A stretch of 64,000 nt of DNA from Bryobacterales bacterium (lineage in GTDB: Bacteria > Acidobacteriota > Terriglobia > Bryobacterales > UBA6623): the NCBI GenBank assembly GCA_965205595.1, contig CBDBHI010000056.1:16832-80831 (forward strand), read 5' to 3'. A program made the position numbers and the translations under genes. Of this stretch, positions 1,626-58,972 are shown in pieces; positions within the stretch are counted from its first letter, which is position 1, and the number at the start of each line of letters is the position of its first letter. A model generated the notes under the pieces. The model was not told the DNA's origin. It searched no databases and saw only the letters and a list, made by a program, of their open reading frames with translations.

Positions 1626-1976
1626 TTACTCCGCATCCCCCAAAAACCGGTTTGGCTTCTGAAAAAACGCAAGCACCAGCGCCCCGTCAGGACAGCGAAC
1701 CGAGTGGCGGCTGCCGGCGGGCCGCCAAACGAAATTCCCCGCCGTCACCTCGCCCTCGTCGTCAACCATTCTCCCCTCAATCACATAGCTCTGCTCGATC
1801 GCGGTGTGCTCGTGAAGCGGCAGCGATGCGCCCGGCTGTAGCCGAACCAACGCTGTCAGCAGCCCTGACGACGGCTCTTCAAATAGAATTTTCATCTCGA
1901 CCCCGGAGTGCTCGGTCGGCGTCCACGGGACTCCATCAACCTGCACGTAGCGAGACCGTAGATCGTCGTCACTCAT
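1626..1976 (-). CDS. cupin-domain protein (ChrR-like cupin)
   Basis: 116-aa ORF with the cupin core LPLHEHTAIEQSYVIEGRM...WRPAGSRHS. It lies immediately upstream of, and is co-oriented with, the FG-GAP gene. Confidence 0.7.
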   Translation of the reverse strand: MSDDDLRSRYVQVDGVPWTPTEHSGVEMKILFEEPSSGLLTALVRLQPGASLPLHEHTAIEQSYVIEGRMVDDEGEVTAGNFVWRPAGSRHSVRCPDGALVLAFFQKPNRFLGDAE

Positions 1977-2118: not shown

Positions 2119-4299
2119 ATGTCGCGCCCCGCAATCGCAATCTTAACCGTAGTGCTGTCCCTCTCACTGGCGGCGACATTCGCCACGGCTCAGCAGTACG
2201 ACACATCGATGGCCTGGCCGCTATGCGGGCGCATCGACGAAGCTCCGCCGGCAGGCTGGGTTGAAACCGACGGTTGCCCTGCCGAGCGCTGGGGCAACGC
2301 GGGCTTTACCGACGAGCCCATCGCGTCGCCCTACGGCCCGCGGCCGTTGGCATCTGAGAATGGTCGCTACGACTTCCACCGCGGCATCGACATCGCAACG
2401 GATTCAATGACGCCGGTATTCGCAATTGCAGACGGCGTGGTCCGAATCGCCGGCAGTCACCCAAGCTATTCCGACCCACTGGTCCAACTGCGTCACTTCC
2501 GCCCCGGCGAAGTCGGTTGCGGCACAGTCGGCTGCTACCACAGCAACTACATGCACCTAACGCAAGCGGTGGTGGTTGTCGACGTGAGCGTTAGCAAGGG
2601 CGACCTGATCGGCTACAGCGGAGCCAGCGCCAGCGGCTTCGAGCACCTGCACTTCGAGATCCGTGACGCGCCGGGCTTCGACCCATTCAGCAGTTGGCAG
2701 CGTGACTGCGTCCACCCGGTGGGCGTTCTGCCCTATTCGAGCGCGACCGTCCCAGACATCATTTTTGAAACGGTTGACACTTCCGACCCCGCCAATCCGC
2801 AAGTCCGCCTCAAGGTTCTTGCAGACCGCATCGACATCGTGCGCGTCGACCTCGAGCTATTCGATTCCGGCGGCGGTTCCATCCCCCAGGCGGGCAATAC
2901 GCCCAATGCCAACGGATACAACGAAGAGCCTTCGTGGTTCGGGATGAACGCTTGGAATGCCCAGTACACTCACAAAGATTCAAGCAGCATTCCATGGGAG
3001 AGTTTCGGCCCCGGCGGTACGTACGAATGTCCGTACAACTCTGAACACGGCGGCAGCTACAGCGCTCACGTCCATATGGACCGGCAACTCGCTTCAGACC
3101 CCAAGGTCGGCGATTTCAACGGGGCGGAAATTCGGCCCGTCGCCTATTCCGAGGGCAACTACACTCTCGACGTCACCTTTAAGCAACTTGTCGGACCAGC
3201 GGCTTGCATCGTAGCGACGGTCCAACACGCCTCTGGTGGGACGTCAACCGCCGAGTGGGGAACCTGCTCACCTTCCGGCGGCTTTAACGATTTCACAGCG
3301 ACCAGCGAGTTGCTATCGGGTGGCACACAGCAAGGCGACTATACCGACACGTCCGACCAAAACGAAGGCGCGGTCGAAGTGCTTACCGAGCGTCAAAGTG
3401 GCGGCAAGCCCCGGAACCGCTACAGCTTCTTAGACCACGAATGGACTGTCGATATCGGAGCAGGTGGAGGCACCGCGACGCTTTGGATCGACGCCTACAC
3501 ATCGCAATCCACCGATGGTGATACGTTCGAGCTCAGCGCGACAGGAGCAAGTGGAGTCGTAACTCTCGACCGGACGAGCGACACCGACGGCTACCAGACG
3601 CTCACGCTGCCGGCGGGCGCGAGCGGGCTGATCACAGTCGGATTAAGCGATACGGACCAAACGCCAGGAGCCAAAGCTCTCGACTCGGTAACGGTCGACC
3701 ACCTGTTTATCCGCGTCGAAGACCCCGGCGAATTGATGCTGCCGAACGCGCCCACCAACGCAAACGCCAACGCACTCTCAGCTAGCAACGTCGAACTTAC
3801 GTGGGATCACTCGGGCGACGATGAGTCTGGCTTTAAAGTCGAACGTCAAACGCAGAACCCTGATCTAAGCTGGGGCAGCTGGCAACAGGTTGGCACGGCG
3901 GCTGTGGACGCAGTGTCTTTCACCGATAGCAGCCTTTCGTCACAGCAGACACTTCGTTATCGCGTCGCCGCGACGAACGCCGCCAGCGACTCCGACTGGG
4001 CTGATTCGAACGAAGTCACTACGCCGCTCGGCCTCAGCGCGGCAGCTTCCGGCCACAAGTCTAAGGGCTGGCAGTATGTCAACGTGTCTTGGTCCGGCGC
4101 TCCGCTCGGCAACGTGGACATCTGGCGTAGCGACAACGGCGGGAGCGCCCAACTCATTGCGACGGTTCCGGCCGGAGTCTCCGGCAGTGGAAGTCATGAA
4201 GACGGCCCGATCGCCAAGGGCTCCGCGACCTACGACTACCAAGTCTGCGTCGAGGGTGACGCCGGCATCTGCTCGAACGTCGCTTCGGTCGTTTTCTGA
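2119..4299 (+). CDS. secreted M23-family metallopeptidase with C-terminal fibronectin type III domain
   Basis: Signal peptide MSRPAIAILTVVLSLSLAATFATAQ. M23 zinc motifs HRGIDIA and HLHFEIR. FN3-like segment NVELTWDHSGDDESGFKVERQ...LRYRVAATN. Confidence 0.8.
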   Translation: MSRPAIAILTVVLSLSLAATFATAQQYDTSMAWPLCGRIDEAPPAGWVETDGCPAERWGNAGFTDEPIASPYGPRPLASENGRYDFHRGIDIATDSMTPVFAIADGVVRIAGSHPSYSDPLVQLRHFRPGEVGCGTVGCYHSNYMHLTQAVVVVDVSVSKGDLIGYSGASASGFEHLHFEIRDAPGFDPFSSWQRDCVHPVGVLPYSSATVPDIIFETVDTSDPANPQVRLKVLADRIDIVRVDLELFDSGGGSIPQAGNTPNANGYNEEPSWFGMNAWNAQYTHKDSSSIPWESFGPGGTYECPYNSEHGGSYSAHVHMDRQLASDPKVGDFNGAEIRPVAYSEGNYTLDVTFKQLVGPAACIVATVQHASGGTSTAEWGTCSPSGGFNDFTATSELLSGGTQQGDYTDTSDQNEGAVEVLTERQSGGKPRNRYSFLDHEWTVDIGAGGGTATLWIDAYTSQSTDGDTFELSATGASGVVTLDRTSDTDGYQTLTLPAGASGLITVGLSDTDQTPGAKALDSVTVDHLFIRVEDPGELMLPNAPTNANANALSASNVELTWDHSGDDESGFKVERQTQNPDLSWGSWQQVGTAAVDAVSFTDSSLSSQQTLRYRVAATNAASDSDWADSNEVTTPLGLSAAASGHKSKGWQYVNVSWSGAPLGNVDIWRSDNGGSAQLIATVPAGVSGSGSHEDGPIAKGSATYDYQVCVEGDAGICSNVASVVF

Positions 4300-4433: not shown

Positions 4434-5246
4434 CTAAGGCTGGGACTTCAGGCCACTCGAGCCCATCGCCGAGGGAAACAAGCGGCTGAAGTTTTCTGTC
4501 GTCCGCGCGGCAATCTCTTCGAAGGTTGTATCCGTGACCTCAGCCAGCTTCTTTGCAGTTTCAACCACAAACCGGGGTTCGTTGCGCCGAACCTTTCGAA
4601 ACGGCGCGGGCGTCAGATAGGGCGAGTCGGTCTCGACCAACACGCGCTCAAGCGGAACACCCTGAGCCGTTTCGCGCAACTCGTCCGAGCGGCCGAAGGT
4701 CAGAATTCCTGCGAACGAAATATAGAACCCCATGTCGAGACTCCGCTTCGCTTGTTCGGCGTTGCCCGAAAAGCAATGCATGATGCCGCCAAGCCCTCTC
4801 GCGCTCCAGTATTCGGCGAGCAGCGCCAGAGTGTCGTCCCACGCATCGCGTGTGTGGATGATGATCGGTTTTTTTTGGTGAGCAGCGATCTCCATTTGAT
4901 CTATGAATGCGCGCTTTTGGATGTCGCGCGGCGAGTTGTCGTAGTGATAGTCGAGGCCGATTTCGCCGAAGCCGACGACCTTCGGGTGGCCGCAAAGATT
5001 CGTCAACTCGTCGGCCGCCGCCGAGTCGAACTTCGCCGCGTCGTGTGGATGCACGCCGACGCTTGCGGACACATTGTTATAGGCATCGGCAAGCCGAATG
5101 GCGCACGAGAGATCCGGGGGGCCATCGCCGGTACCGATTGCGAGAAAGTGGCCGACTCCAGCCTCACGCGCCTCCGAAATTACTGCGTCGCGATCCGCGT
5201 CGAACGCTCGCCCGTCGAGGTGGCAGTGTGAGTCGACTAGCCGCAT
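4434..5246 (-). CDS. tatD: TatD-family metal-dependent hydrolase (YcfH/YabD type)
   Basis: N-terminus MRLVDSHCHLD, then IGEIGLDYHY, IIHTRDAWDD and ETDSPYL motifs; 270 aa. It sits downstream of metG, as in many bacteria. Confidence 0.9.
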   Translation of the reverse strand: MRLVDSHCHLDGRAFDADRDAVISEAREAGVGHFLAIGTGDGPPDLSCAIRLADAYNNVSASVGVHPHDAAKFDSAAADELTNLCGHPKVVGFGEIGLDYHYDNSPRDIQKRAFIDQMEIAAHQKKPIIIHTRDAWDDTLALLAEYWSARGLGGIMHCFSGNAEQAKRSLDMGFYISFAGILTFGRSDELRETAQGVPLERVLVETDSPYLTPAPFRKVRRNEPRFVVETAKKLAEVTDTTFEEIAARTTENFSRLFPSAMGSSGLKSQP

Positions 5247-5420
5247 TTCTCACCACGTGGCGATCGAAAGTGCGTGAGAGGTGCGTCAATACGAGGCGGG
5301 CGACAGTCGGCGCGCGGAGGCGTACTTGACGGTCCGTCGAGCACGACGACCGAGCGCAACGAAGTATTGGCGTGCCTCTCGCGTGCTTTCGCCGTCAGGT
5401 GGTGAGAAATGCGGGTTAGC
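5237..5420. repeat. 184-bp long-hairpin repeat element, copy 1 (MITE-like or structured RNA)
   Basis: Termini CTAGCCGCATTTCTCACC ... GGTGAGAAATGCGGGTTAGC are inverted repeats, and the arms pair for about 55 nt. A second full copy lies at 18308-18495 and an end fragment at 58377-58401. The small ORFs 5237..5422(-) and 18309..18500(-) only reflect this DNA-level similarity. Confidence 0.75.
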
Positions 5421-5428
5421 ACCGGCCG

Positions 5429-7399
5429 TTAGCTCAAGCGGGCGCCGGTCGGCGCATCCTCCAAGAAGCCGGCCAGATACGGCTGGCCGTGATCGATGGA
5501 CGCCGCGATCACCATTCCTTGCGAAATCCGCCCCATCATCTTTCGGGGCGCCAGATTTGCAACGATCGCGACCTTGCGTCCGACCAACTCTTGGGGGTCG
5601 TACGCGCCCGCGATCCCGGCCAAAATCGAGCGCGGCTCGGCTTCGCCGATATCGACGGTTAACGCCAACAGCTTTTTCGACTTCTCGACCTTTTCCGCCG
5701 TCACTACTATACCCACGCGCATATCGACTTTGACGAAATCGTCGAACGCAATCTCGGGGGTATCGATCGTAATCGTCTCGGGCTCTGCAGGCTCGGCTTC
5801 GGCCGGCTTGCCTAGAATTCCGGCCTGATCTTTGAGTGCTTGTTGCTCTAGCTCTTCCATCTGTTTCACCGACTTCTCGACATCGAGTCGAGGGAAAATT
5901 GCTTCCTGATCACCGAGCTTGATGCCCGGCCTGAGTCCGCCCCAGCGCAGCTCGTGCAACTGGAAGTCCCGCAGTGAGGAGCTTTCTCCGAGCATCGCCC
6001 AGACTTTTTCGGAAGCCTGGGGCAACACTGGGTGGACCAATGCCGCTCCAATCCGCAGTACCTCGCCCGAGTTGTAGAGCGTCGCGGCCAGTTGCCTCTT
6101 TGACGCCTCGTCCTCGGCCTTCGCCAAAACCCAGGGTTTGTTTTCAACGATGTATTTGTCCACGCCCGCCAGCATCGCCCAAATTGCTTCCAGCGCCCGC
6201 GAGAATTCGAAATTCTCATAGTGAGCCACGACCTTGTCGATGGTCGCAACAGCGAGAGCTTCTAGGCCGCCATCGTCGCCACCTCCGGCCTCGGGCACAA
6301 CACCGCCATAGAACTTCGCGACCATCGCCGCCGTGCGGCTGGCCAGATTGCCGATGCCATTCGCGAGATCGGAGTTGTAGCGCCGAACCAGAGCATCGAG
6401 CGAAAAATTGCCGTCTTGTCCGAAGACAATTTCGCGCAGCAGGTAGTAGCGAAGACCTTCGATGCCGACAACTTCGTCGATTGGACGCGCCCGCACGATG
6501 TTGCCTTTCGACTTCGACATCTTGTCGCCTTGGAAGATCAGCCAACCGTGCGCCCAAACCTGCTTCGGCAGCGGCAATCCAGCCGCCATCAAGAATGCCG
6601 GCCAATAAACCGAGTGAAATCGAACAATTTCCTTGCCGACCATGTGAACGTCGGCAGGCCACAGCCGTTCCCACTGCTTACGCTCGTCGCCCTCTTCGCC
6701 GTAGCCAATCGCGCTCATATATGTTGTCAGCGCATCAAACCAGACGTAGAAAACATGCGCCGGATCGTTCGGTAGCGGGATGCCCCACTTCAGCGTTGAG
6801 CGGCTGATCGAGAGATCTTTCAGGCCGCCGCGAACAAACGACAGAACTTCATTGCGCCGCGAATCAGGCTGGATAAACTTGGGCTGCGACTCGTAAAGAT
6901 CAATCAGCTTGTCTTGATACTCCGACAACTTGAAGAAGTAGTTCTCTTCAGTCACGGTCGTGATCATCGCCGGGTCGGCCTGCTCAGCCTCTTCGTCGGT
7001 GACGAATGCCTCATCGCCGATGTGATACTTGCCGGTGTAGGAATCTTTGTAGATTGCGCCGTTTTCGAGGCACCGCAAGAAAATTTCCTTGACAGCCTTG
7101 GCGTGTTTCGGGTCGGTCGTTCGGCGATAGAAATCGTACTCCAGTCCGAGTGCATCCCACTCAGAGCGGAACGCGGCCGAGACGCGATCGGTAAATTCCC
7201 GTGGGCTCCAACCCGCCGCTTGCGCCGATCTTTCAACCTTCTGGCCGTGCTCGTCGGTTCCGGTCGTCAGATAAACTTCGTCGCCCATCATGCGCCGAAA
7301 ACGCTTGATGGTATCGGTCACGATCGTCGTGTAAGCGTGGCCGATGTGAGGCGTCGCGTTGACGTAGTAGATCGGCGTCGTTAGATAGTACTTGCCCAT
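5429..7399 (-). CDS. metG: methionine--tRNA ligase with C-terminal tRNA-binding (EMAP/Trbp111-like) domain
   Basis: MGKYYLTTPIYYVNATPHIGH (HIGH motif), KMSKSKGN (KMSKS motif), and C-terminal VKVDMRVGIVVTAEKVEKSKKLLALTVDIGE. I place the start at ATG 7397-7399 (MGKYYL) rather than the upstream 7501 of the ORF track. Confidence 0.93.
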   Translation of the reverse strand: MGKYYLTTPIYYVNATPHIGHAYTTIVTDTIKRFRRMMGDEVYLTTGTDEHGQKVERSAQAAGWSPREFTDRVSAAFRSEWDALGLEYDFYRRTTDPKHAKAVKEIFLRCLENGAIYKDSYTGKYHIGDEAFVTDEEAEQADPAMITTVTEENYFFKLSEYQDKLIDLYESQPKFIQPDSRRNEVLSFVRGGLKDLSISRSTLKWGIPLPNDPAHVFYVWFDALTTYMSAIGYGEEGDERKQWERLWPADVHMVGKEIVRFHSVYWPAFLMAAGLPLPKQVWAHGWLIFQGDKMSKSKGNIVRARPIDEVVGIEGLRYYLLREIVFGQDGNFSLDALVRRYNSDLANGIGNLASRTAAMVAKFYGGVVPEAGGGDDGGLEALAVATIDKVVAHYENFEFSRALEAIWAMLAGVDKYIVENKPWVLAKAEDEASKRQLAATLYNSGEVLRIGAALVHPVLPQASEKVWAMLGESSSLRDFQLHELRWGGLRPGIKLGDQEAIFPRLDVEKSVKQMEELEQQALKDQAGILGKPAEAEPAEPETITIDTPEIAFDDFVKVDMRVGIVVTAEKVEKSKKLLALTVDIGEAEPRSILAGIAGAYDPQELVGRKVAIVANLAPRKMMGRISQGMVIAASIDHGQPYLAGFLEDAPTGARLS

Positions 7400-7562
7400 G
7401 GCCCAATCTTTAAGTGTCTCGCATCGAGCCAACGTCTCGCTGTCGTCTAATCGTTTCGCCGACCCAGGCGGCAGAGCCGCGGACGAGAAGTCCGCGATCA
7501 TCGCGATTGCTCATTAACGCGGGCTCGCCGACCGCGGTTCTACAACTACCGGTTCTCGCGTC

Positions 7563-16770: not shown

Positions 16771-18154
16771 CTGGAGTTTGGCTGTTCGGCGGCGGTCGGA
16801 GTTTGGGATAGGGTGGGGAAATGGGGAGTTGGCGTTAGCCGGAAGCGTAGATTGCTGCAGGTGGAGCGCCTCTTGGGAGTTTCTGCAGCTTCGTGTTGGG
16901 GTGCGGAGTGTTCCTCAAGCCGCAGAAATGTTGACGCTGCACGCCGTCCGCCCAAAGCTCGGCCCGCAGGTGGCTGATCAGCCGTTGCGTGGTGAGCCGT
17001 TGCGGCTGCGAGCGGCGTCGCCAGTGCGGTCGCGGCAAGGCGTCGTCCACGCCCTGTTGGCGGCTCCAACTCGCGCCCGGCAACACCAGTAGTGCATACA
17101 CCGCCGTCATGAATTGAGGGATCCGCTCGACCGCGTCCGGCTGCCGCACCTGCGCCTGTCCGACTCCCAACAGCGTCTTCTGCTCACGGCAGTTGACCTC
17201 GATCTCCCAGCGCCAAACGTACTGCCGCACGATCTGCTCCAGACTCAGATTCGGATCACTAACAATCAAATACGGCGGCTTGCGATACAACACCTTCGAG
17301 CCCGCCCGCGGCCGATAGCCCAGCGGTCGAATCACCACCAAACGTACGTCCCGCTTGCCTCCCGCCGGTTGCTGCCGCTCGCTCGGAGGCAGTGCTGCCG
17401 AGAACTGCAAGAAGCGCTGCGCGAGAATCAAGTTGGCCTGAAACTTGGGTCCAAGCGGAGCGCGCCGCCAACTCACGCCGGGCGTTTTGAGACTCGACTT
17501 GGCGAGCAGTGTATCGTCGATGGCGACGAGCAAGGGAGCCTCGGGCGGCAAGCGAGCGAGCACCTCGCGGCGCGAGGCATCGAGCAGGCGTTGGGGCTCC
17601 ACACGTTGTTGCGAGAACAGGCGGTAGCCGGCGCTCCAATCCTGAAAGCTCTCGCCGGAGGCATGCAGCAGGCCGGTGATGGTGGAGCGGCCGAGGCAGA
17701 CGGTGGCGCCGAGAGCGAGGCGGGTGAGGTGGTCGTTCACGCTTTGTCGGGCGTGGGGGTTGAGGCCTTTGGCGAAGAGTTGGGAGAAGGTGTCGACGAC
17801 TCGTTGAGGAGTTTTTTTTTAACTCAACGGGCGGGGCTTGTAAACGATTGAGCACGAGTTGGGAGCGGTCGAGCAGGATCCATTCGAGCTGTTCGCCGGG
17901 CTGGAAGTCGAGCATCTGAGCGGTGGCGGAGGGGAAGTTGACGTAGAACTGTTGCGAGGCCTTGCGCTTGATCAACTGGAGTTTGGTGGGGAAGGGCATG
18001 AGGTCTCCTTTGCAGTGAATCTAGTTATAAAACAAGCTAAACAACTAGATACAAGAGTACCTCAAAACGTTTTAAGACACAAGCATTCTCAGATCCCTCA
18101 CAACTCAACTACGCGCCTACCGCGCATCCCATCTAGTGAAAGGCCAAACTCCAG
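16771..18154 (-). mobile_element. IS701/IS4-superfamily-like insertion sequence (boundaries tentative)
   Basis: Candidate 17-bp IRs are CTGGAGTTTGGCTGTTC (16771-16787) and the reverse complement of GAAAGGCCAAACTCCAG (18138-18154), matching at 15/17. Both ends abut the GGACGGAAGTCCAC hairpin motif (16754-16767 and 18161-18174). An alternative inner boundary pair (about 16803 and 18131, TGGGAT...) cannot be excluded. Confidence 0.45.
16835..17999 (-). CDS. DDE transposase (IS701/IS4-like) encoded in two frames that meet at an A9 run
   Basis: The upstream frame (17999 down to the run) gives MPFPTKLQLIKRKASQQFYVNFP...GEQLEWILLDRSQLVL, an AbrB/SpoVT-like fold by resemblance. The downstream frame gives VVDTFSQLFAKGLNPHARQSVNDHLTRL...YVWRWEIEVNCREQK, a YxxRWxIE-type motif. 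The frames switch (+1) at T9 17812-17820. Confidence 0.7.
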
Positions 18155-18307: not shown

Positions 18308-18495
18308 GTTAGCCCGCATTTCTCACCCCGTGACGAGCGAAAGTGTGTGAGAGGTGGGCCAATACGAGGCGGGCGACGGTCGGCGCGCGGAGGCGTACTT
18401 TTGCAGTCCGTCGAGCACTCGCGATCGAGCGCAACGAAGTAGTGGCGCATCTATCGCCTGCGTTCGCCGTGAGGTGGTAAGAAACGTGGGTTAAC
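18308..18495. repeat. 188-bp long-hairpin repeat element, copy 2
   Basis: GTTAGCCCGCATTTCTCACC...GGTAAGAAACGTGGGTTAAC. It shares the same core (CAATACGAGGCGGGCGAC.GTCGGCGCGCGGAGGCGTACTT...GAGCGCAACGAAGTA) as copy 1 at 5237-5420. Confidence 0.75.
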
Positions 18496-18497
18496 CT

Positions 18498-19950
18498 CAA
18501 TACTCGTTACTTAATTATTTTTATAGCTTTCTCGAAATCAATGCGATGGTGGCGCAGCGGCGCGCGCGGTCGGAGCGGGTAGCTGCTCATCTTCCGCTTG
18601 ACTCCTCGTGGCGTACGTCTGCCGCGACTCGACCGCGCGCGCTCTTCGAGAACCTCCCGGACGACCGCGCGATGAAAGGCTTTTCTAACCCGAGGGGGGA
18701 ATAGCCGCCGCGAGCGGCATCTTGCGTCGAATCACTCGCACCGCGTGAATATACGAAAGTCGATGCGGATCTTCGTCCGCCTCCAACGCCGCTTCGTGCA
18801 GCAAGCCGCGGATCGCAAAATGGGCCAGCATCAATCCGTAGAACTCCTGCCGCACCAGCTCCGGCGTCTTGCTGCGCAACACGATCCGCGCGCCGCGCAA
18901 GTGGGTCTTGAGTTCGTCCAGCGCGTTTTCGATCTCCCAGCGCTCGTGGTATAAAGACGCCATCTCGTCCGCCGCAGCCCGCTTGGGATCAAGCACTGTC
19001 GTCAGCAAGCGATAAAACGGCTCGGCATCCTCAACGCCTTCGAGTTCGTATTCAATCACGCGCACACGGATGCCCGCGCGGCGCTTCCGCCGATCACTTT
19101 CGGAAGCGTAGATGACCCTCAGGTAGGAGCCGTCGGCGAACCGTTCGAGCACCTCAAGACGCACATTCTTCTTGGCTCTCCACAACAGATCCGCTCCCGT
19201 TTGGCTCGCCTGCCGCCACAATTCGTAACCCAGGAAGTTGCGGTCCGCGAGGCAGAGCCAACCCTTTTGCAAGGCGGGCAGCACTTGTTTCGCCAGCGTG
19301 ATTTCGCCCGCGGCGTAAGGCCCCAGGCGGCTGGCGAACAACACGTGGGTACCGTTTTCGACCAGCGAGACGAAACGAATTTGCGGAAAGGCGCTGGGGC
19401 CGCGGCCGGCGGCCGGTCGCCCGAAGGCCTGCTGATTGCGTTTCTCATCGGCCACGTCCAAGCTGCTGCCGTCGAGCGAGACGAGCCGCCAGCGACGGTA
19501 GAATGCGCCTCGCGTGCGGCGCTTCGCCAGGGGCCGGACCAACTCGTCGTGCAGATGCGCAAGCGGCTCCCATCCGAGCCGCGTACGGGCTCGCGAGATT
19601 CCGGAATGGCCGGCGACGCGCCGCGCTGCTTGCGGTCCCTGAATCCACTGGAGCCCTGCCAGCAAGCAACGCAGTACCTCGCGATAGGAAACCCGCATGT
19701 ACAGCGCCAGAGCGATCACGTAATAGACGACGACGTACGCGGGCAAGTCGCGCTGTCGGCGGCTGAGCCTGCCCGTGGCGGCCAGCGCCCGCTCCACCGC
19801 CACACGAGGAAACCACTTGGCCACCACGCCCAAACTGATGTAGTCAGTAATGCGCGCATCCGCTGGCAACCGCGCTAACGTCCGTGCCATCTCGCGCCCT
19901 CCCGTCTACAAGTCAGGATAGCATCGAAATGATCTAAGTCACGAGTATTG
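18498..19950 (-). mobile_element. IS4-family insertion sequence
   Basis: 15-bp terminal inverted repeats: CAATACTCGTTACTT (18498-18512) and AAGTCACGAGTATTG (19936-19950), matching at 14/15. They enclose one 401-aa transposase gene. An AT-rich subterminal segment lies at 18510-18540. I found no clear target duplication. Confidence 0.75.
18685..19890 (-). CDS. IS4-family DDE transposase (intact)
   Basis: N-terminal IS4-type domain ITDYISLGVVAKWFPRVAVERALAATGRLSRRQRDLPAYVVVYYVIALALY. DDE domain with LADRNF and YHERWEIENALDELK. Confidence 0.85.
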   Translation of the reverse strand: MARTLARLPADARITDYISLGVVAKWFPRVAVERALAATGRLSRRQRDLPAYVVVYYVIALALYMRVSYREVLRCLLAGLQWIQGPQAARRVAGHSGISRARTRLGWEPLAHLHDELVRPLAKRRTRGAFYRRWRLVSLDGSSLDVADEKRNQQAFGRPAAGRGPSAFPQIRFVSLVENGTHVLFASRLGPYAAGEITLAKQVLPALQKGWLCLADRNFLGYELWRQASQTGADLLWRAKKNVRLEVLERFADGSYLRVIYASESDRRKRRAGIRVRVIEYELEGVEDAEPFYRLLTTVLDPKRAAADEMASLYHERWEIENALDELKTHLRGARIVLRSKTPELVRQEFYGLMLAHFAIRGLLHEAALEADEDPHRLSYIHAVRVIRRKMPLAAAIPPSG

Positions 19951-25889: not shown

Positions 25890-27164
25890 TCAACTTCCTT
25901 TCCAGTGCTTGTCGGTGAAATCGAGATAGCGAAGCCAGTCGTACTGCTCGATGCCGTGGCCGCCTTTTCGAATGTGGTATCCGATTCGTCCTATCTGGAC
26001 GGGGCTTTCCACCCGGGGCATGTGTTCGGTTTCCAAGCCCTGAACGCCTAGCAGGTGATAGATAGGTTCGGCATGTTTCGCGCCAAGGAACTCGCCGCGA
26101 GGATCCGCCCACAGGTCCTCGTCGGCACTGCTGACGTACAGCAGGCGCGGCGCGATCAGAGACAGTAACATATGCTGGTCGAGCGGCAAGCCATCCTCGT
26201 TCCCGCCGTATTGCTTGTAGTTCTCGCTATACCAATGCTGGTTGCGGTCGTTCAGCACGTCCACGGGGTTCCCGTAGCGCCGGCGGCTTAACGCCGCGCC
26301 AGTCGAACCAGAGCAGACCGAGATCGTCATCGCGAATCGTTCGTCTTGTGCTCCTGCCCAAAGCGCCGTTTTTCCGGCCCGCGAAACTCCCATGACCGCC
26401 ACGCAGCTCTCGTCCACATCCTCGTCTGTCTCGAGATAATCCATCGCTCGGCTCAACCCCCAGGCCCAGGCCGCGATCGTGCCCCACGCATCCCCGGGTC
26501 TCTCACCCGCTGCGTCGAATGCGCCATGGACTCCGTTTTTGAATTCATCGTCCTCATCGGGGTCAATACTTTCCCTGTCAACTACAGCCAGGGCGTAGCC
26601 GCGCGACAAGATTTCTGGCAGGACTTCTTCCCATCGCGTTTGCGGCGCGGAATCCGCCTTTAGTGGCCGTCCAAGATAAAGAAATGCGGGAACCGGCTTC
26701 GGTTCGCCATTGGGTAGATAGATGCGCATGTCCATGCGCGGACCGTCGGCCTTGCCCGTGAAGTTAATTGCGAGGTCTTTCTGAGTCGCGGTTCCCTCTA
26801 GCGCCTGTCCGTTCGCTGCCCCGAGTTCAATTGTCATGCCCTCTGGACGCGCTACTGGCGCACGCCCATGAACGTGCGTCCGGAACAGTTCAAGAATTTC
26901 GGGACGGCGAAAGCTCCGCCACGCGTCAGCATCCGCGACTTTCGAACCGTCGCTCATCGCAAGGGAGTCCGGCAGCGTATAGGCCGGAACATTTACTTCG
27001 CGGAAGTTCGATTCGTAGCTCCGATTCCGATCGCGATCCTCGAACTTCTTTACGAATTCGGGCGGCGCAACCCAGCCTTGTGGCGCTTGCTCCTCAGCGA
27101 GAGGCGAGGAACTACAGCCCGCAAACAGCGTAAGAGCAGCGAGGAACAGGCGATTGCTTTGCAT
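25890..27164 (-). CDS. CE15-like glucuronoyl esterase lipoprotein
   Basis: Lipobox LFAGC. The segment MGVSRAGKTALWAGAQDERF matches the G-x-S-R-x-G-K nucleophile motif of carbohydrate esterase family 15. About 420 aa. Confidence 0.65.
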   Translation of the reverse strand: MQSNRLFLAALTLFAGCSSSPLAEEQAPQGWVAPPEFVKKFEDRDRNRSYESNFREVNVPAYTLPDSLAMSDGSKVADADAWRSFRRPEILELFRTHVHGRAPVARPEGMTIELGAANGQALEGTATQKDLAINFTGKADGPRMDMRIYLPNGEPKPVPAFLYLGRPLKADSAPQTRWEEVLPEILSRGYALAVVDRESIDPDEDDEFKNGVHGAFDAAGERPGDAWGTIAAWAWGLSRAMDYLETDEDVDESCVAVMGVSRAGKTALWAGAQDERFAMTISVCSGSTGAALSRRRYGNPVDVLNDRNQHWYSENYKQYGGNEDGLPLDQHMLLSLIAPRLLYVSSADEDLWADPRGEFLGAKHAEPIYHLLGVQGLETEHMPRVESPVQIGRIGYHIRKGGHGIEQYDWLRYLDFTDKHWKGS

Positions 27165-53352: not shown

Positions 53353-53689
53353 GTAGAGTAGGGGAGGGTCCCGCAAGTGGGCGTAACCTCCCCCCTCGTC
53401 GAACCGGACTTGCGGATTTCCCGCATCCGGCTCTCCAACAAGCTCTCGCCTTGGGCATGCGCGGGTCGAGACTAGTGCGAGCGGTTCAGCTCCAGCAGCC
53501 CCTGGCGTTGGAAAAAGGAATACCAAGGCTCGTCCTTCGGCGGTCGAAACCGGTGCTGTCCCCGCCGTCGCAGATGTCGCATGAAACGCCACCGCAGGTA
53601 CCAGTCCAGCTCCCAGTAGGCACCCCGCGGATAGCCCCTCGAAAAGTAGTTCGCCCAACCTCTCATCTGTCGGTTTAGCCGCCCGATCA
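53353..53689 (-). mobile_element. group II intron 3' fragment (copy A): end of the RT maturase domain, domain V, complete domain VI
   Basis: It encodes ...[45 protein letters not shown]...ELNRSH*. Domain V is GAGCCGGATGCGGGAAATCCGCAAGTCCGGTTC (53433->53401). Domain VI has a bulged A and ends ...CCCCTACTCTAC at 53353. Confidence 0.75.
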
Positions 53690-53693
53690 CCAA

Positions 53694-55137
53694 GGGGCTG
53701 TGAAAAAACCTCCCCTAACTCGAGAATCGGGCGTAGCAAGCTACGCCCCTACAAATAACTTGCGTGTTATCAGCGCTGTAGGGGTGCGACATGTCGCACC
53801 CTCGGGCGACCGTAGGCTCGGCTACGCCGCGAGTTCGGCGGCGCGCGCCGCCGAAAGTTCCTCCTGCGCGGTCTCCATGTTGAAGTAGGCCCGTTCGGCC
53901 AGCTGCCAGCGTTCGTGCTGCTCGACCAGCAACGCGCCGACCAGCCGTTCGCACGAGGCCCGGTTCGGAAACACTCCCACCACCCGGGTGCGCTGCTTGA
54001 TCGTCTTCATCAGCCGCTCGGCCATGTTCGTCGACGTCAATCGCTTGCGATGGCTCTCCGGGAATCCCAAGACCGTCAGGCAATCCTCCAGGCCCGCGCG
54101 CAGCATCGCGGCCACTTTCGGCCGCCGCCGCTCCCACTTCTCCGCCATCTCTTCGCCGATCCGCAGACAGCCTTGGCGGTCCGCCGCCGCGAATACCGCC
54201 GCCAAGTCACGCAGCACTTCGCGGTACTCGGTATGCGCCACTTTGCGCGCGATCTCGCGTTTGAAATGCACGCGGCAGCGCTGCCACCGCACCCCTTGGA
54301 AGTGTTTCTCCAGCGCCGCCCGGATCCCTGAGTGCGCGTCTGAAATGACCAGTTTGACGCCCGTCAGTCCGCGCTGCTTGAGCCCTTGCAATACCGACCC
54401 CCAGGTCTCGAGCGATTCGCTGTCGCCGTTACGCCAGTCGAGTATTTCCCGGCCGCCCTCAGCGTTGAAGCCGATCACCACCAACACCGCTTCGCTGCTG
54501 ATCGAGCCTCCAGCACGAACTTTCTCATAACGGGCGTCGATCATCAGGTAGGGATACTCGCTCGTCAAGCGCCGCCCGCGCATCGCGTCCAGCTTCTCGT
54601 CAAGTTCCGCCGCGACGCGCGAAACCGTCATCGCTGAGATGTCGAGACCGCACATCTTCTCCAGAACCGTCTCGACGCGCCGCGTCGAGACGCCTTGGAA
54701 ATACATCTCGCTGCAAGCCACCAGCAACGCTCGTTCGCTGCGTTGCCAGCGGGCGAACAGCGACGGGTGGTAGGGCTCGCAATCGCGCACTTGCGGTACG
54801 TCGAAATGCAGTTCGCCGTTGCGCGTCTTGAACGTCCGCGGCTTCTTGCCGTTGCGCCGTTCCGCGCCGGCTCTCGATTCGTTGGTAGGGCTGCGCCCCC
54901 AGATGCTGGTTGACTTCCGCCTGCATTGCTTGTTCGATCAGGGCTGCGAGCAGCTGCTTGACTCCTTCGTCTTGTTGGAACAGCTCTTGCGCCAGTTCCA
55001 GGATCTTGTCACTGTGGTCTTGGGTCATCGTTGTCGTCTCCTCTAGACGGGTTGTTTGGTTCTTCCCATCGTGAGCGCCGACCGATGACCCGGTCTACTC
55101 CGCGTCAAACATTTGCCAGAAGTATTGTTACAGAACC
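53694..55137 (-). mobile_element. IS256-family insertion sequence (no target duplication)
   Basis: Imperfect terminal repeats are GGGGCTGTGAAAAAACCTCC (53694-) and the reverse complement of ...GTTACAGAACC (-55137), matching at about 13/20. Both flanks are group II intron sequence, but from non-contiguous positions. Confidence 0.7.
53822..55028 (-). pseudogene. IS256-family transposase with a +1 frameshift near 54860-54880
   Basis: The N-terminal frame reads MTQDHSDKILELAQELFQQDEGVKQLLAALIEQAMQAEVNQHLGAQPYQR. The expected continuation ERRNGKKPRTFKTRNGELHFDVPQVRDCEPYHPSLFARWQRSERALL...MYFQGVSTRRV is in another frame. Confidence 0.85.
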
Positions 55138-56714
<1,577 letters not shown>

Positions 56715-58326
56715 CGTCTTGTCCAATACAAGATGAGCCTGAAGGGAGGGGTGATTCCAACACAAGATGAGCCTGGAGGTAATTTGGGCAAGGTCGATTA
56801 GGAACAGGCAAACTGCGGGCGATGGGAGTCGCCGTGCAGCAAGCCGAATCACTGAGTCTCGATGAGATCGAGAGTTTTCTTGACGGGTGTGGGTCCGTCG
56901 AGTTCCAGGCCGGAAGTCGAGCGGATAAATACGCGCTCGTCGAAGGCGTCCTGAAGAGGCATCATTATGCCGACCAGAAGCGCTCGGTTAAAGGATTGTT
57001 GAGACGCTTCCTGAGCAAGCTAACCGGCTTAAGCCGCGCCCAATTGACTCGCCTCATCGGGCAGTTTTTGCGCGAAAAGTGCGTTCGGCCGACAGCCTAT
57101 CGAAGGCGCCGCTTCCCCACCAAGTACAGCCGCGCCGACATCGTTCTCCTGGCGCATGTCGACCAAGTACAGCAACGTCTCTCCGGGCCGGCGACGCGTC
57201 GCATTCTCCAGCGCGAGTTCCAAATCTACAACCGCAAGGAGTTCGAACGCCTTGCCGAACTGTCGGTGGGACACCTCTACAACTTGCGCAAACGCGCCGT
57301 CTACCGGCGACACAGTTTGCATCTCGACAAGACTCGACCGACACCCGTGGCGATCGGCGAACGCCGCCAACCCGAGCCGCGAGGACGTCCGGGCTACCTG
57401 CGCATCGACACCGTGCACTCGCCCGAACAGGAAGGTGAAAAAGGCGCCTACAGCATCAACGTGGTCGACGAAGTGACGCAGTGGCAGGCCGTCGGCTGCG
57501 TCCAACGCATCAACGAAAACCACCTCATTCCCTTGCTGGAAGGCCTTTTGGAACAATTTCCATTTATCGTTCGCGGCTTTCACTCCGACAATGGCAGCGA
57601 ATTCGTCAACCATCAAACCGCTAAACTGCTCGAGAAGTTGCGAATTGAATTTACGAAGTCTCGCGCGCGCCGTTCGAACGACAATGCCTTGGTCGAAACC
57701 AAGAACGGCGCGGTGGTGCGCAAGTGGATGGGCTACCAGTTTTTGCCCTCGGAAGCGACGCAGGCGATCGACACCTTCTACCGCCAGTGGCTCAACCCGT
57801 ACTTGAATTTTCATCGCCCATGCGCTTTCGCCAGCGAGCGCCGAGACCGCCGCGGCAAGTTGCGCAAGGTGTACGCCGAGTGGAGCACGCCGTGGGAAAA
57901 GCTGCTCAGCCTGCCCGCCGAGCAGCGCGGCCTGCGCGCGGATCGCTCGCTCAAGAAGCTCCAAGCGCGAGCGGACACTTGTTCCGACACCGAGTTTGCC
58001 GAGCAACTCGACGCTCAGCGCAACGAACTGCAACGCGTCTGCAAAGACCTCGCGATCTGCTGGCGCACGCGCTAGACAACGCCCCGACCCGAGGCGTTGT
58101 CGGCTCCTCCGGCCCACGTCCGAAGACGGCCGTGGGGTCTCGCCTGGGATGGCTGCAAAGGGGGATTGGGGTGCCGCCCCTTCCCCCTTATGCAATCCCC
58201 CTCACCCCGCCCTACGAAGCCACAAATAGCTGTAGCCGCCGACCTCAACTCACGCTATAATCCCCCTCACCCCGCAGCTGCTTCGCCTCTCTCCTTCAGG
58301 CTCATCTTTCAATTGGAAAAGAGGGG
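56715..58326 (+). mobile_element. rve-type IS (IS481/ISNCY-like), copy 2, inserted in group II intron copy B
   Basis: It has the same end architecture as copy 1. The flanks 56572-56714 and 58327-58378 are both homologous to contiguous intron sequence 58393-58590. Confidence 0.7.
56822..58075 (+). CDS. DDE integrase-core (rve) transposase, intact (paralog of 34360..35613)
   Basis: 417 aa. The N-terminal half differs from copy 1 at many residues. The C-terminal ~215 aa are identical. Confidence 0.85.
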   Translation: MGVAVQQAESLSLDEIESFLDGCGSVEFQAGSRADKYALVEGVLKRHHYADQKRSVKGLLRRFLSKLTGLSRAQLTRLIGQFLREKCVRPTAYRRRRFPTKYSRADIVLLAHVDQVQQRLSGPATRRILQREFQIYNRKEFERLAELSVGHLYNLRKRAVYRRHSLHLDKTRPTPVAIGERRQPEPRGRPGYLRIDTVHSPEQEGEKGAYSINVVDEVTQWQAVGCVQRINENHLIPLLEGLLEQFPFIVRGFHSDNGSEFVNHQTAKLLEKLRIEFTKSRARRSNDNALVETKNGAVVRKWMGYQFLPSEATQAIDTFYRQWLNPYLNFHRPCAFASERRDRRGKLRKVYAEWSTPWEKLLSLPAEQRGLRADRSLKKLQARADTCSDTEFAEQLDAQRNELQRVCKDLAICWRTR

Positions 58327-58392
58327 CGCATTCGACTCCCGCACCAGCCCCAGCGCTGGTTATGTTTTCCCTGCGCCGCGTGGCGAGAAATG

Positions 58393-58972
58393 CGGGCTAG
58401 CAAGTGGAATCTTTTGAACATCAACGGCTCTCCCTTCTGTCGCAATCAGCATGCTTGTCTGACTCCGTCAGCATGAAAGCGCCAGGGGCCCCTTCGCTCC
58501 ACTCGCATTACCGAGCTTCTTCGCTACTATGCGCCCCTCCGACTCCCGCACCGGCCCCTGCAAGGGTTATGGATTCCCCTCGCCGGCTTGACGACCTGCG
58601 CCTCTACGAGCGCGCAGCCCCCCTGCCGATGCAGGCCTCCCAGGTTCCTGACGAATCTTTCCACGCGCGCTGTCCGCTTCCACCCCGAAGAGTCCGCCGG
58701 CTGCTTGTGTTCGTTGCTTCACCGACGGTTGCAGGCTTCACCCTACGCGACAGGCTGGCCACTCTCGACTTGCTAACGAGGCTCTCGAACGCGGTTCACT
58801 TGCGTTACGGCTCACGTGTTTGCCTTCTCGGGCTTCGCCCGCCTCGGCCACCAACAGCAGTTACCCGCTGAAGGCGTCCTCCGCGAACGCCGAGTCGGCT
58901 ACGGGGGTGAACGAACGATTCCCACGATGAACTCCTTTCAGTTCACTAGATTCGCCAGACTTAGCCTGGCAC
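58393..58972 (-). mobile_element. group II intron 5' fragment (copy C): 5' end through the region just upstream of the RT start
   Basis: In minus sense it starts GTGCCAGGCTAAGTCTGGCGAATC at 58972. Its last ~143 nt repeat 56572-56714 with 4 differences by eye. It ends at GCTAGCCCG, where it abuts a 25-nt end fragment of the long-hairpin repeat. Confidence 0.7.

Follow-up and report, generated by a model that had tools for sequence, protein, structure and literature searches.

A hairpin-forming miniature transposable element with IS1380-type ends at the metG-tatD junction of a Bryobacterales bacterium and across bacterial phyla

In a contig of a Bryobacterales bacterium (Acidobacteriota; GenBank assembly GCA_965205595.1, contig CBDBHI010000056.1), the short space between the co-oriented genes metG and tatD is taken up by a repeat able to fold into one long hairpin, and the question arises whether such a sequence is a mobile element or, alternatively, a structured RNA or processing site, both of which had been considered in an original prediction made from the letters of this DNA. 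We analysed the stretch of 64,000 nucleotides extending from position 16,832 to 80,831 of that contig (the window; positions are counted from its first letter). In metagenome data, a contig of 550 kb contains the window. The element is a non-coding MITE (a miniature transposable element bounded by inverted repeats) of about 175 bp, with ends of the IS1380 family of insertion sequences (ISs) and a 4-bp target duplication. Its attributes are those of a MITE: a length below about 300 bp, dispersed copies, terminal inverted repeats, a target duplication and no transposase coding. The suggestion of a MITE of unidentified parent is supported, and the parent family can now be named through the termini and the direct 4-bp flanks. 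Taken as a whole, that is, including mobilisation by IS1380 and the account of the tatD insertion given below, we regard this reading as likely.

Within the window, both full copies lie where they had been predicted: in a blastn alignment of 184 nt, 5237-5420 and 18310-18493 are 85.3% identical, with 1- and 3-nt indels between them, and the alignment ends abruptly, exactly at the element termini. The copies are real, but the boundaries first proposed had taken in the 4-bp target duplications and have been redrawn (Table 1); likewise, the terminal sequence first quoted belongs to copy 2, copy 1 having a left end of CCGC instead of CCCGC. At each of the two copies, three of the four flank bases agree. 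The end fragment announced further downstream is short and nevertheless real: the bases at 58383-58396 match the 14-mer terminal repeat at all but one position, and CTAG comes next; arithmetic gives a chance expectation of about 0.02 such 14-mer matches across the window, and blastn places a match at 58374-58401 (matches of 22-34 nt, E 0.002-0.02). A candidate third copy at 26493-26690, with inverted ends 198 nt apart and three mismatches in each 'end', was rejected as probable chance: its interior is unrelated and the covariance model described below gives it about 5 bits.

Further copies were sought by a pattern scan of one genome per species, in which the ends were fixed and the interior was free (CCGCATTTCTC N140-170 GAGAAATGCGG). 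This cross-species census yielded at least 114 copies, distributed over no fewer than 112 genomic stretches, numbers that are lower bounds because perfect 11-mers were needed at both ends. The hosts, almost all of them metagenome-assembled genomes (MAGs), belong to the Acidobacteriota (Bryobacterales, Thermoanaerobaculia, Vicinamibacterales, Holophagae), Planctomycetota, Verrucomicrobiota, Nitrospirota and Chlamydiota, to the Gamma-, Beta-, Alpha- and Delta-proteobacteria as well as the Myxococcales, and to one cyanobacterium; among the matches listed, the nearest relatives of the window copies are found in Bryobacterales (Acidobacteriota) MAGs. Sizes range from 173 to 190 bp and cluster tightly (114 elements), the commonest distance from one pattern end to the other being 174 nt. 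At 85% identity the copies form 34 clusters, every one of which is limited to one host clade, and the median identity between clusters is 58%; this pattern of subfamilies does not look like the recent cross-phylum transfer of one sequence. The consensus of the 114 copies and of the full-length IS1380 copies gives CCCGCATTTCTCAC and GTGAGAAATGCGGG as the terminal inverted repeats. Immediately outside them, the 4-nt flanks are identical in 63 of the 114 MITE copies, and where the left flank is non-palindromic (n = 50), 16 pairs are identical when read as direct repeats, but not one when read as inverted repeats. Outside CCCGC...GCGGG, the four bases on each side represent a target-site duplication, as looked for in the original prediction, and do not belong to the inverted repeat; the target is YTAR, realised as CTAG 40 times among the 114 copies.

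The parentage was read from the ends. A search of annotated plasmids with the 37-nt end consensus at a relaxed E-value found the same termini bounding two ISs of 1,655 bp, on the Pseudomonas putida plasmid pKF715A and on a Stutzerimonas megaplasmid, both with genes annotated as 'IS1380 family transposase', as well as a 1,654-bp Bradyrhizobium copy (L114), whose transposase gene is frame-shifted (pseudogene); all three are flanked by CTAG on both sides. The pKF715A protein reaches 406.8 bits against the IS1380 transposase model NCBIfam NF033539 (cut-off 180) and has at least 8,000 homologues, the best 120 of which are all at least 67% identical to it, with Armatimonadetes and several Pseudomonadota among the named sources. 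Metagenome contigs supplied ten further full-length loci, which comprise three additional elements (1663-1698 bp) with YTAR flanks, and PF13701 matches the metagenome transposase proteins. In total, 13 full-length loci of 1654-1698 bp, comprising six different elements, were obtained from Pseudomonas, Stutzerimonas and Bradyrhizobium plasmids and from metagenome contigs; their ends read CCCG[C/G][A/T]TTTCTCAC...GTGAGA[A/C]A[T/A]GCGGG with YTAR flanks, and the transposase gene is intact in 12 of them, L114 being the exception. The IS1380 family (ISfinder) is characterised by a 4-5-bp target duplication and ends beginning with CC, a description that the 4-bp YTAR duplication and the CCC...GGG ends fit.

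Between the MITE and the six full-length elements, the likeness is limited to the ends of about 15-17 bp, and none of the six, in any of the 13 loci, carries MITE-like arms. Because its interior is unlike that of any IS1380 element examined, the MITE is not a simple deletion derivative of those ISs; of the outcome that would have told against the original prediction, a clear match of the termini to a known IS family that showed a trivial deletion derivative, only the match was found. A plasmid database of 72,556 records, queried with copy 1 and two proteobacterial/deltaproteobacterial copies, yielded no MITE copy, and its IS1380 ends came up with the 37-nt query alone. Where two ends lie 1.4-3.5 kb from each other in the MITE loci, the genes between them are host genes and not transposases. 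Elements of similar size with the same ends and unrelated interiors were also encountered (L004, L010, L014, L044, L047, L048, L049, L051, L054, L057, L021, L038), including low-GC hairpins (42-51%) in the Chlamydiota-labelled L021 and L038, and one in the cyanobacterial L051 (Floridaenema). Such varied interiors between the same ends fit a transposase that reads the terminal repeats only, and there appear to be several independent MITE families using the same transposase ends.

Some individual loci deserve mention in their own right. The species labels of two MAGs look wrong, namely 'Akkermansia muciniphila' for L036 (CAMCXS010000102.1, 61% GC) and 'Chlamydia trachomatis' for L038 (CAMAUB010000016.1, 51% GC). 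In L052, an Acidobacteriota MAG, two main-family copies of the same sequence lie in opposite orientation (1694-1868, plus strand; 3648-3822, minus strand) about 1.8-2 kb apart, and this pair bracketing about 1.8 kb is possibly a composite arrangement. In L016, positions 4816-6393 (1578 bp) hold a main-family MITE (4816-4993), a host Rieske-type oxygenase gene (4994-6133, minus strand) and a lone right end with a TTAA flank (6393), which could be a MITE-bounded mobile unit with a passenger gene; a second lone end with the same interior is found at about 80-190 of this locus, at position 190.

That each copy forms one long imperfect hairpin was confirmed well beyond shuffled controls: the minimum free energy of copy 1 is -118.5 kcal/mol on the plus strand (z -11.7) and -88.5 kcal/mol on the minus strand (z -6.6), and copy 2 reaches -87.9 and -70.3 kcal/mol, respectively. 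About 80% of the elements have one common interior architecture, in which the terminal-repeat stem is continued by a long stem with small purine-rich internal loops, the conserved loop motifs being 5' ..AUGC(G/A)AGGCGC.. and 3' ..GCAACG(A/C)AGCAG.., and the rod is closed by a conserved apical stem-loop, GGCRUAGUYGACACUAYGUC. The core of about 70 nt that had been taken as non-palindromic is not unstructured: in the consensus, the hairpin continues through the purine-rich loops up to this apical stem-loop. For 21 diverse copies aligned with MAFFT, RNAalifold predicts 57 pairs, of which 39 show compensatory double changes. A covariance model, R1, recovers 85 members at E<=1e-22; in their alignment 92.7% of the cells are paired, compared with 71.1% in column shuffles and 35-44% with slid partners, double changes occur in 45 of the 57 pairs and the covariation score is 0.551 against 0.174. 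The alignment of these 85 members was fitted to the model and hence leans towards the structure, a bias from which the 21-copy result is free. In many phyla, lineage-specific subfamilies preserve the interior through compensatory changes.

Moreover, the two strands of this hairpin are not equivalent. The original prediction had seen a weak hint of strand-specific structure in copy 1 and no clean asymmetry in copy 2; the latter does show it (6 G-U against 2 A-C, compared with 8 against 1 in copy 1), and the hint has become a strong, family-wide signal. In the 85-member alignment, 325 G-U/U-G cells stand against 50 A-C/C-A cells, always on the same strand, and purine-purine mismatches outnumber pyrimidine-pyrimidine ones by 213 to 70, the unpaired columns being 65% purine. 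Counted by cluster (34 at 85% identity), G-U exceeds A-C in 25, the reverse holds in one and eight are tied, so that the bias, visible cluster by cluster, is not one inherited accident. With RNA parameters, 75 of 79 unique copies fold more stably as the plus strand, the mean difference being 18.6 kcal/mol, and of the copies oriented by the loop motif alone, 44 of 45 do so. The constraint acts on one particular strand, the one that carries the G-U pairs and the G/A-rich loops. Since this polarity goes with the element itself, whichever way round it lies in the genome, it is poorly explained by host transcription reading through, by effects of the replication strand or by a role as cruciform or duplex. 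We infer that selection acts on the source copies in the form of a nucleic acid that is single-stranded and has a fixed polarity.

As to the nature of this nucleic acid, a plus-strand transcript is the reading we prefer, although we hold it with no more than even confidence; the absence of any function is possible but less likely, and a single-stranded DNA form is unlikely. What such a transcript would do can be guessed at most; it might control the partner transposase or protect from cleavage of the RNase III type. Several observations weigh against this account. Examined with a simple codon-model gene finder, the copies are mainly intergenic (17 co-directional, 14 convergent, 13 antisense, 12 divergent, 17 with unclear flanks and 8 overlapping a predicted open reading frame, ORF), and the first four counts reveal no orientation preference relative to the flanking genes; because of this randomness, the strand-specific structure is not one tied to the metG-tatD operon, as had been hinted earlier. 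No sigma-70-like promoter is predicted in or beside copy 1. DNA parameters favour the plus strand too, by 9.0 kcal/mol, which leaves single-stranded DNA and RNA inseparable on this measure, and orientation by the covariance model favours the better-pairing strand, an objection that the motif-only control answers partly. Finally, a tblastn search for an IS1380 transposase gave nothing, either across the 64-kb window or at the 112 MITE loci, whereas potential partners with these ends abound elsewhere. Copy 1 is not accompanied by an intrinsic terminator, 0 terminator-like sites being predicted in 5100-5600.

The random orientation, the missing promoter and the DNA parameters would equally suit an IS1380 MITE without any RNA role, the hairpin of which serves at the DNA level, in end pairing for the transposase or as a cruciform, while the excess of G-T over A-C stems from strand-biased mutation or repair; the element is a transposon, after all, and its asymmetric 'loops' could just as well be left and right subterminal protein-binding sites in duplex DNA. 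A cruciform or duplex, however, makes no distinction between the strands, and a 6.5:1 ratio of G-U to A-C tied to the polarity of the element is not what it would predict; mutation bias from replication or transcription follows genomic orientation, yet the opposite copies in L052 are identical; and full-length IS1380 copies transpose without such an interior. We therefore consider an explanation at the DNA level alone rather unlikely. Descent by simple internal deletion from a resident IS1380 element, the ends of which would equal both arms over about 85 bp, is improbable: the termini are indeed identical to IS1380 ends, and the partner IS of this lineage is not seen in the window, but the six elements examined have only their ends in common with the MITE, its length is tightly kept (173-176 bp) across phyla, and the conserved apical stem-loop sits exactly at the would-be deletion junction. 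Tight length and apical stem-loop rather speak for a single origin that has spread as a MITE.

Two further readings would dispense with an IS1380 MITE altogether. Strong covariation, strand asymmetry and the position between two co-transcribed genes are what one would expect of an immobile chromosomal RNA gene, or of a cis-regulatory or processing element of the metG-tatD operon, but the well-folding strand is antisense to that operon, copies occur in unrelated contexts with 4-bp target duplications, metG and tatD of relatives abut without such an element, and Rfam has no match at the gathering score, nor at E<=10 on 5200-5460; this possibility is very slight. Integron attC sites run RYYYAAC...GTTRRRY and are recognised as a folded strand, and the imperfect palindrome with its strand-specific folding and unpaired bases, together with copies whose ends read GTTAGCC...GGCTAAC, would make an attC-like site with GTTA...TAAC ends conceivable. 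It was rejected by the flank test, the outer four bases being direct (16) and not inverted (0) repeats; besides, the polarity is opposite to that of attC, no cassette arrays or integrase lie nearby and the ends are those of IS1380 elements, leaving this reading with a negligible probability.

On the minus strand of the metG-tatD junction the order is TAA, CGGCCG, GTG, CTAA, the 175-nt MITE and CTAG TCGAC TCA CAC TGC CAC. When the element and one duplication are taken out, the reconstructed empty site, TAA CGGCCG GTG CTA GTC GAC TCA CAC TGC CAC, translates to (M)LVDSHCHLD, with the start 6 nt past the metG stop. Nearly all metagenomic tatD relatives (45-60% identical) start with MLVDSHCH or M-x-LVDSHCH, and in those with metG upstream, the metG stop usually overlaps or abuts the tatD start. 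The reconstructed site and the relatives together indicate that the element went into the CTAG at codons 2-3 of tatD, severing the previous start from the gene. The original prediction had rightly placed the tatD ATG within the left arm and the metG stop beyond the right one, and the element does lie between metG stop and tatD start; rather than filling a spacer, though, it breaks the original tatD start, the spacer before insertion having been 6 nt.

The start used at present reads GGTGAGAA ATG CGG / CTA GTC, giving MRLVDSHCH, with GGTGA preceding the ATG, and no other in-frame start is found ahead of the metal-binding DSHCH motif. A canonical end (CCCGC) would put this ATG out of frame, with a stop after 27 codons; the loss of one C, leaving CCGC in copy 1, brings the terminal-repeat ATG into frame. 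The first base of the left end differs from the consensus C in only 9 of 114 other copies, and that the lost C is a compensatory 1-nt deletion seems to us fairly probable. This account has its own counter-evidence: the best tatD relatives, at most 60% identical, are too distant to serve as orthologous empty sites; in the predicted fold of the mRNA sense, ATG and GGTGA are fully paired at the hairpin base; and at other copies, ORFs of at least 250 codons lie 16 times in the frame of the terminal-repeat ATG and 12 times in the +1 frame. The terminal-repeat ATG as a general start codon is thus unsupported, and as its frame is not enriched for long ORFs, the donation of a start is to be seen as a local one-off accident, not as a property of the family. 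Counted from the stop codon's first base, the stem starts 16 nt further on, which is probably too far for a terminating ribosome to reach.

Table 1 Features of the metG-tatD junction and of the element copies in the 64-kb window
Feature	Position	Strand	Remarks
MITE copy 1	5241..5415	+	175 bp; + is the family's better-folding 'sense' strand; model R1 156.5 bits (+), 45.3 (-)
Copy 1, left target-site duplication CTAG	5237..5240		Read from sequence
Copy 1, right target-site duplication TTAG	5416..5419		One mismatch to the left copy
Copy 1, left terminal inverted repeat CCGCATTTCTCAC	5241..5253	+	One C fewer than the consensus CCCGCATTTCTCAC
Copy 1, right terminal inverted repeat GTGAGAAATGCGGG	5402..5415	+	Exact match
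MITE copy 2	18313..18490	+	178 bp; model R1 133.6 bits (+), 28.2 (-)
Copy 2, right terminal repeat GTAAGAAACGTGGG			Degenerate
Copy 2, left target duplication TTAG	18309..18312		
Copy 2, right target duplication TTAA	18491..18494		
Lone right end GCGAGAAATGCGGG, then CTAG	58383..58400	+	About 26 nt like the MITE 3' arm; remainder of the element absent
tatD (TatD_DNase family)	4434..5246	-	270 aa
metG (methionyl-tRNA synthetase)	5429..7501	-	690 aa
Present tatD start ATG, inside left terminal repeat	5244..5246	-	Translation MRLVDSHCHLD
Inferred ancestral tatD start GTG	5420..5422	-	Parted from the gene by the insertion
metG stop TAA	5429..5431	-	

Based on these observations, the following course of events can be proposed. 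A DDE transposase of the IS1380 family would mobilise the MITE in trans, recognising the terminal inverted repeats of about 15 bp, CCCGCATTTCTCAC(C), inserting at YTAR and duplicating 4 bp. The interior of about 145 nt would be kept as a rod-like hairpin, the source copies being selected as one strand, most likely as a transcript. Copy 1 would have landed in the CTAG of tatD codons 2-3, 6 nt downstream of the metG stop, cutting off the GTG; the ATG in the outward-facing terminal repeat, placed after GGTGA, would open the only frame that keeps the essential DSHCH motif, and the loss of one C would have restored this frame as a compensatory fix. The operon mRNA would form the weaker, antisense hairpin, burying the ATG, so that tatD translation is probably low or dependent on unfolding or processing. 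With its start at the base of a 175-nt hairpin and next to an upstream stop, tatD might also be translated by a shunt-like coupling across the hairpin. Going one step further, the interior could be a functional module made of structured RNA (or single-stranded DNA), with its polarity fixed, which rides on IS1380 repeats through at least eight phyla and has a selected function of its own, control of the IS1380 transposase or a role at the host level being candidates; we put this forward as a tentative idea, possible without being probable.

The surroundings of the window copies and the junction itself offer some additional observations. Copy 2 has debris of mobile elements clustered locally around it and lies between an IS701-like transposase remnant (16835-17740, minus strand; DDE_5; NF049999 104.9 bits, below cut-off) and an intact ORF for an IS4-family transposase (18685-19890, minus strand; NF033592 229.6 bits); the neighbouring IS701-like remnant was rejected as parent, as the ends are those of IS1380 and not of IS701. 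Around the lone end, a direct repeat of 144 nt (56571-56714 and 58393-58537, 97-98% identical, spacing 1822-1823 nt) has a second copy that starts exactly at the CGGG/CTAG boundary of this IS1380-type end, and just past it lies a 53-nt repeat (58326-58378 and 58533-58585, 77% identity). An IS481-like rve ORF (56822-58075, plus strand) is situated between the 144-nt copies, with a group II intron nearby; the 144-nt repeat may be the duplicated 5' part of a group II intron or a nested insertion at CTAG. Matches to group II intron domain V/VI are found at 53353-53435 and 55130-55193 (both minus strand; 51.7 and 43.2 bits), the second adjoined by a reverse-transcriptase/maturase ORF (55230-56336, minus strand; RVT_1 and GIIM), and an ORF for an IS256/Mutator-family transposase (53822-54790, minus strand) lies between the two intron 3' ends. 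In several distant relatives, the metG-tatD spacer, normally 0-12 nt, holds other, unrelated palindromic or tandem-repeat inserts of 84-243 nt (L128 1269-1512, L134 1342-1493, L139 1368-1506, L140 739-883, L146 1428-1512, L147 1300-1506), for example repeats of GCGGAGAC and of CAACTGACAAC; hairpin repeats seem to have settled at this junction time and again.

With the IS1380 family, a parent can be named for a repeat that recurs in Acidobacteriota, Planctomycetota, Verrucomicrobiota and many proteobacterial MAGs. For annotation this is of practical relevance, as gene callers already begin an ORF inside the element in at least one gene. MITEs normally are a matter of the genus, and one secondary structure maintained through 34 diverged, host-specific subfamilies is unusual; its G-U bias of 6.5:1 on one strand makes it a tractable case for asking whether the interior of a MITE is selected as RNA. 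The tatD locus provides a natural example of a start codon destroyed by insertion and replaced by an ATG of the terminal repeat, with the frame restored by a 1-nt deletion. If the reading of the interior as an RNA module were true, the element would be a mobile, transposase-parasitising structured RNA, the rewiring of translation starts, as at tatD, being a side effect.

Compared with known systems, the element is closest in its ends to the IS1380 ISs of the clade of about 1.65 kb (pKF715A, Stutzerimonas): both have the repeats of about 15 bp, CCCGCATTTCTCAC(C), the CCC...GGG ends and a YTAR (mostly CTAG) duplication, whereas the MITE lacks a transposase gene, its interior shows no relation to the interior and subterminal regions of the ISs, and the whole element is one hairpin. 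The transposons of the piggyBac type duplicate a 4-bp TTAA target, and their ends start with CCC and finish with GGG. A 4-bp target of palindromic type (TTAA versus YTAR) and CCC/GGG ends are thus common to both, piggyBac being eukaryotic and the present element bacterial, with the transposase not present in the MITE; the IS1380 transposases serve as the prokaryotic outgroup of piggyBac (PMC10813416). With integron attC sites, whose function depends on one folded strand, the element has the imperfect palindrome and the extrahelical bases in common, but it is flanked by direct repeats, lies outside any integron context and has the ends of an IS family. Hairpin MITEs are known as Correia/NEMIS in Neisseria, ERIC in enterobacteria, RUP in pneumococcus and Nezha in cyanobacteria (PMC3184786, PMC10969869); like these, the element measures 100-200 bp, is non-coding and intergenic and has terminal repeats and target duplications, and such MITEs form very stable hairpins if transcribed and sometimes fuse to or alter neighbouring genes (PMC3184786, PMC10969869). 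A published IS1380-derived MITE was not found in the searchable literature, which is absence of evidence only. Unlike Correia, ERIC, RUP and Nezha, which are confined to a genus or family, the present element has an interior recognisable in at least eight phyla, with lineage-specific subfamilies, as well as IS1380-type ends and a quantified one-strand bias of G-U pairs and purine loops; it therefore differs from the known hairpin MITEs in its parent family, in its spread over many phyla with a conserved interior and in the quantified constraint on one strand.

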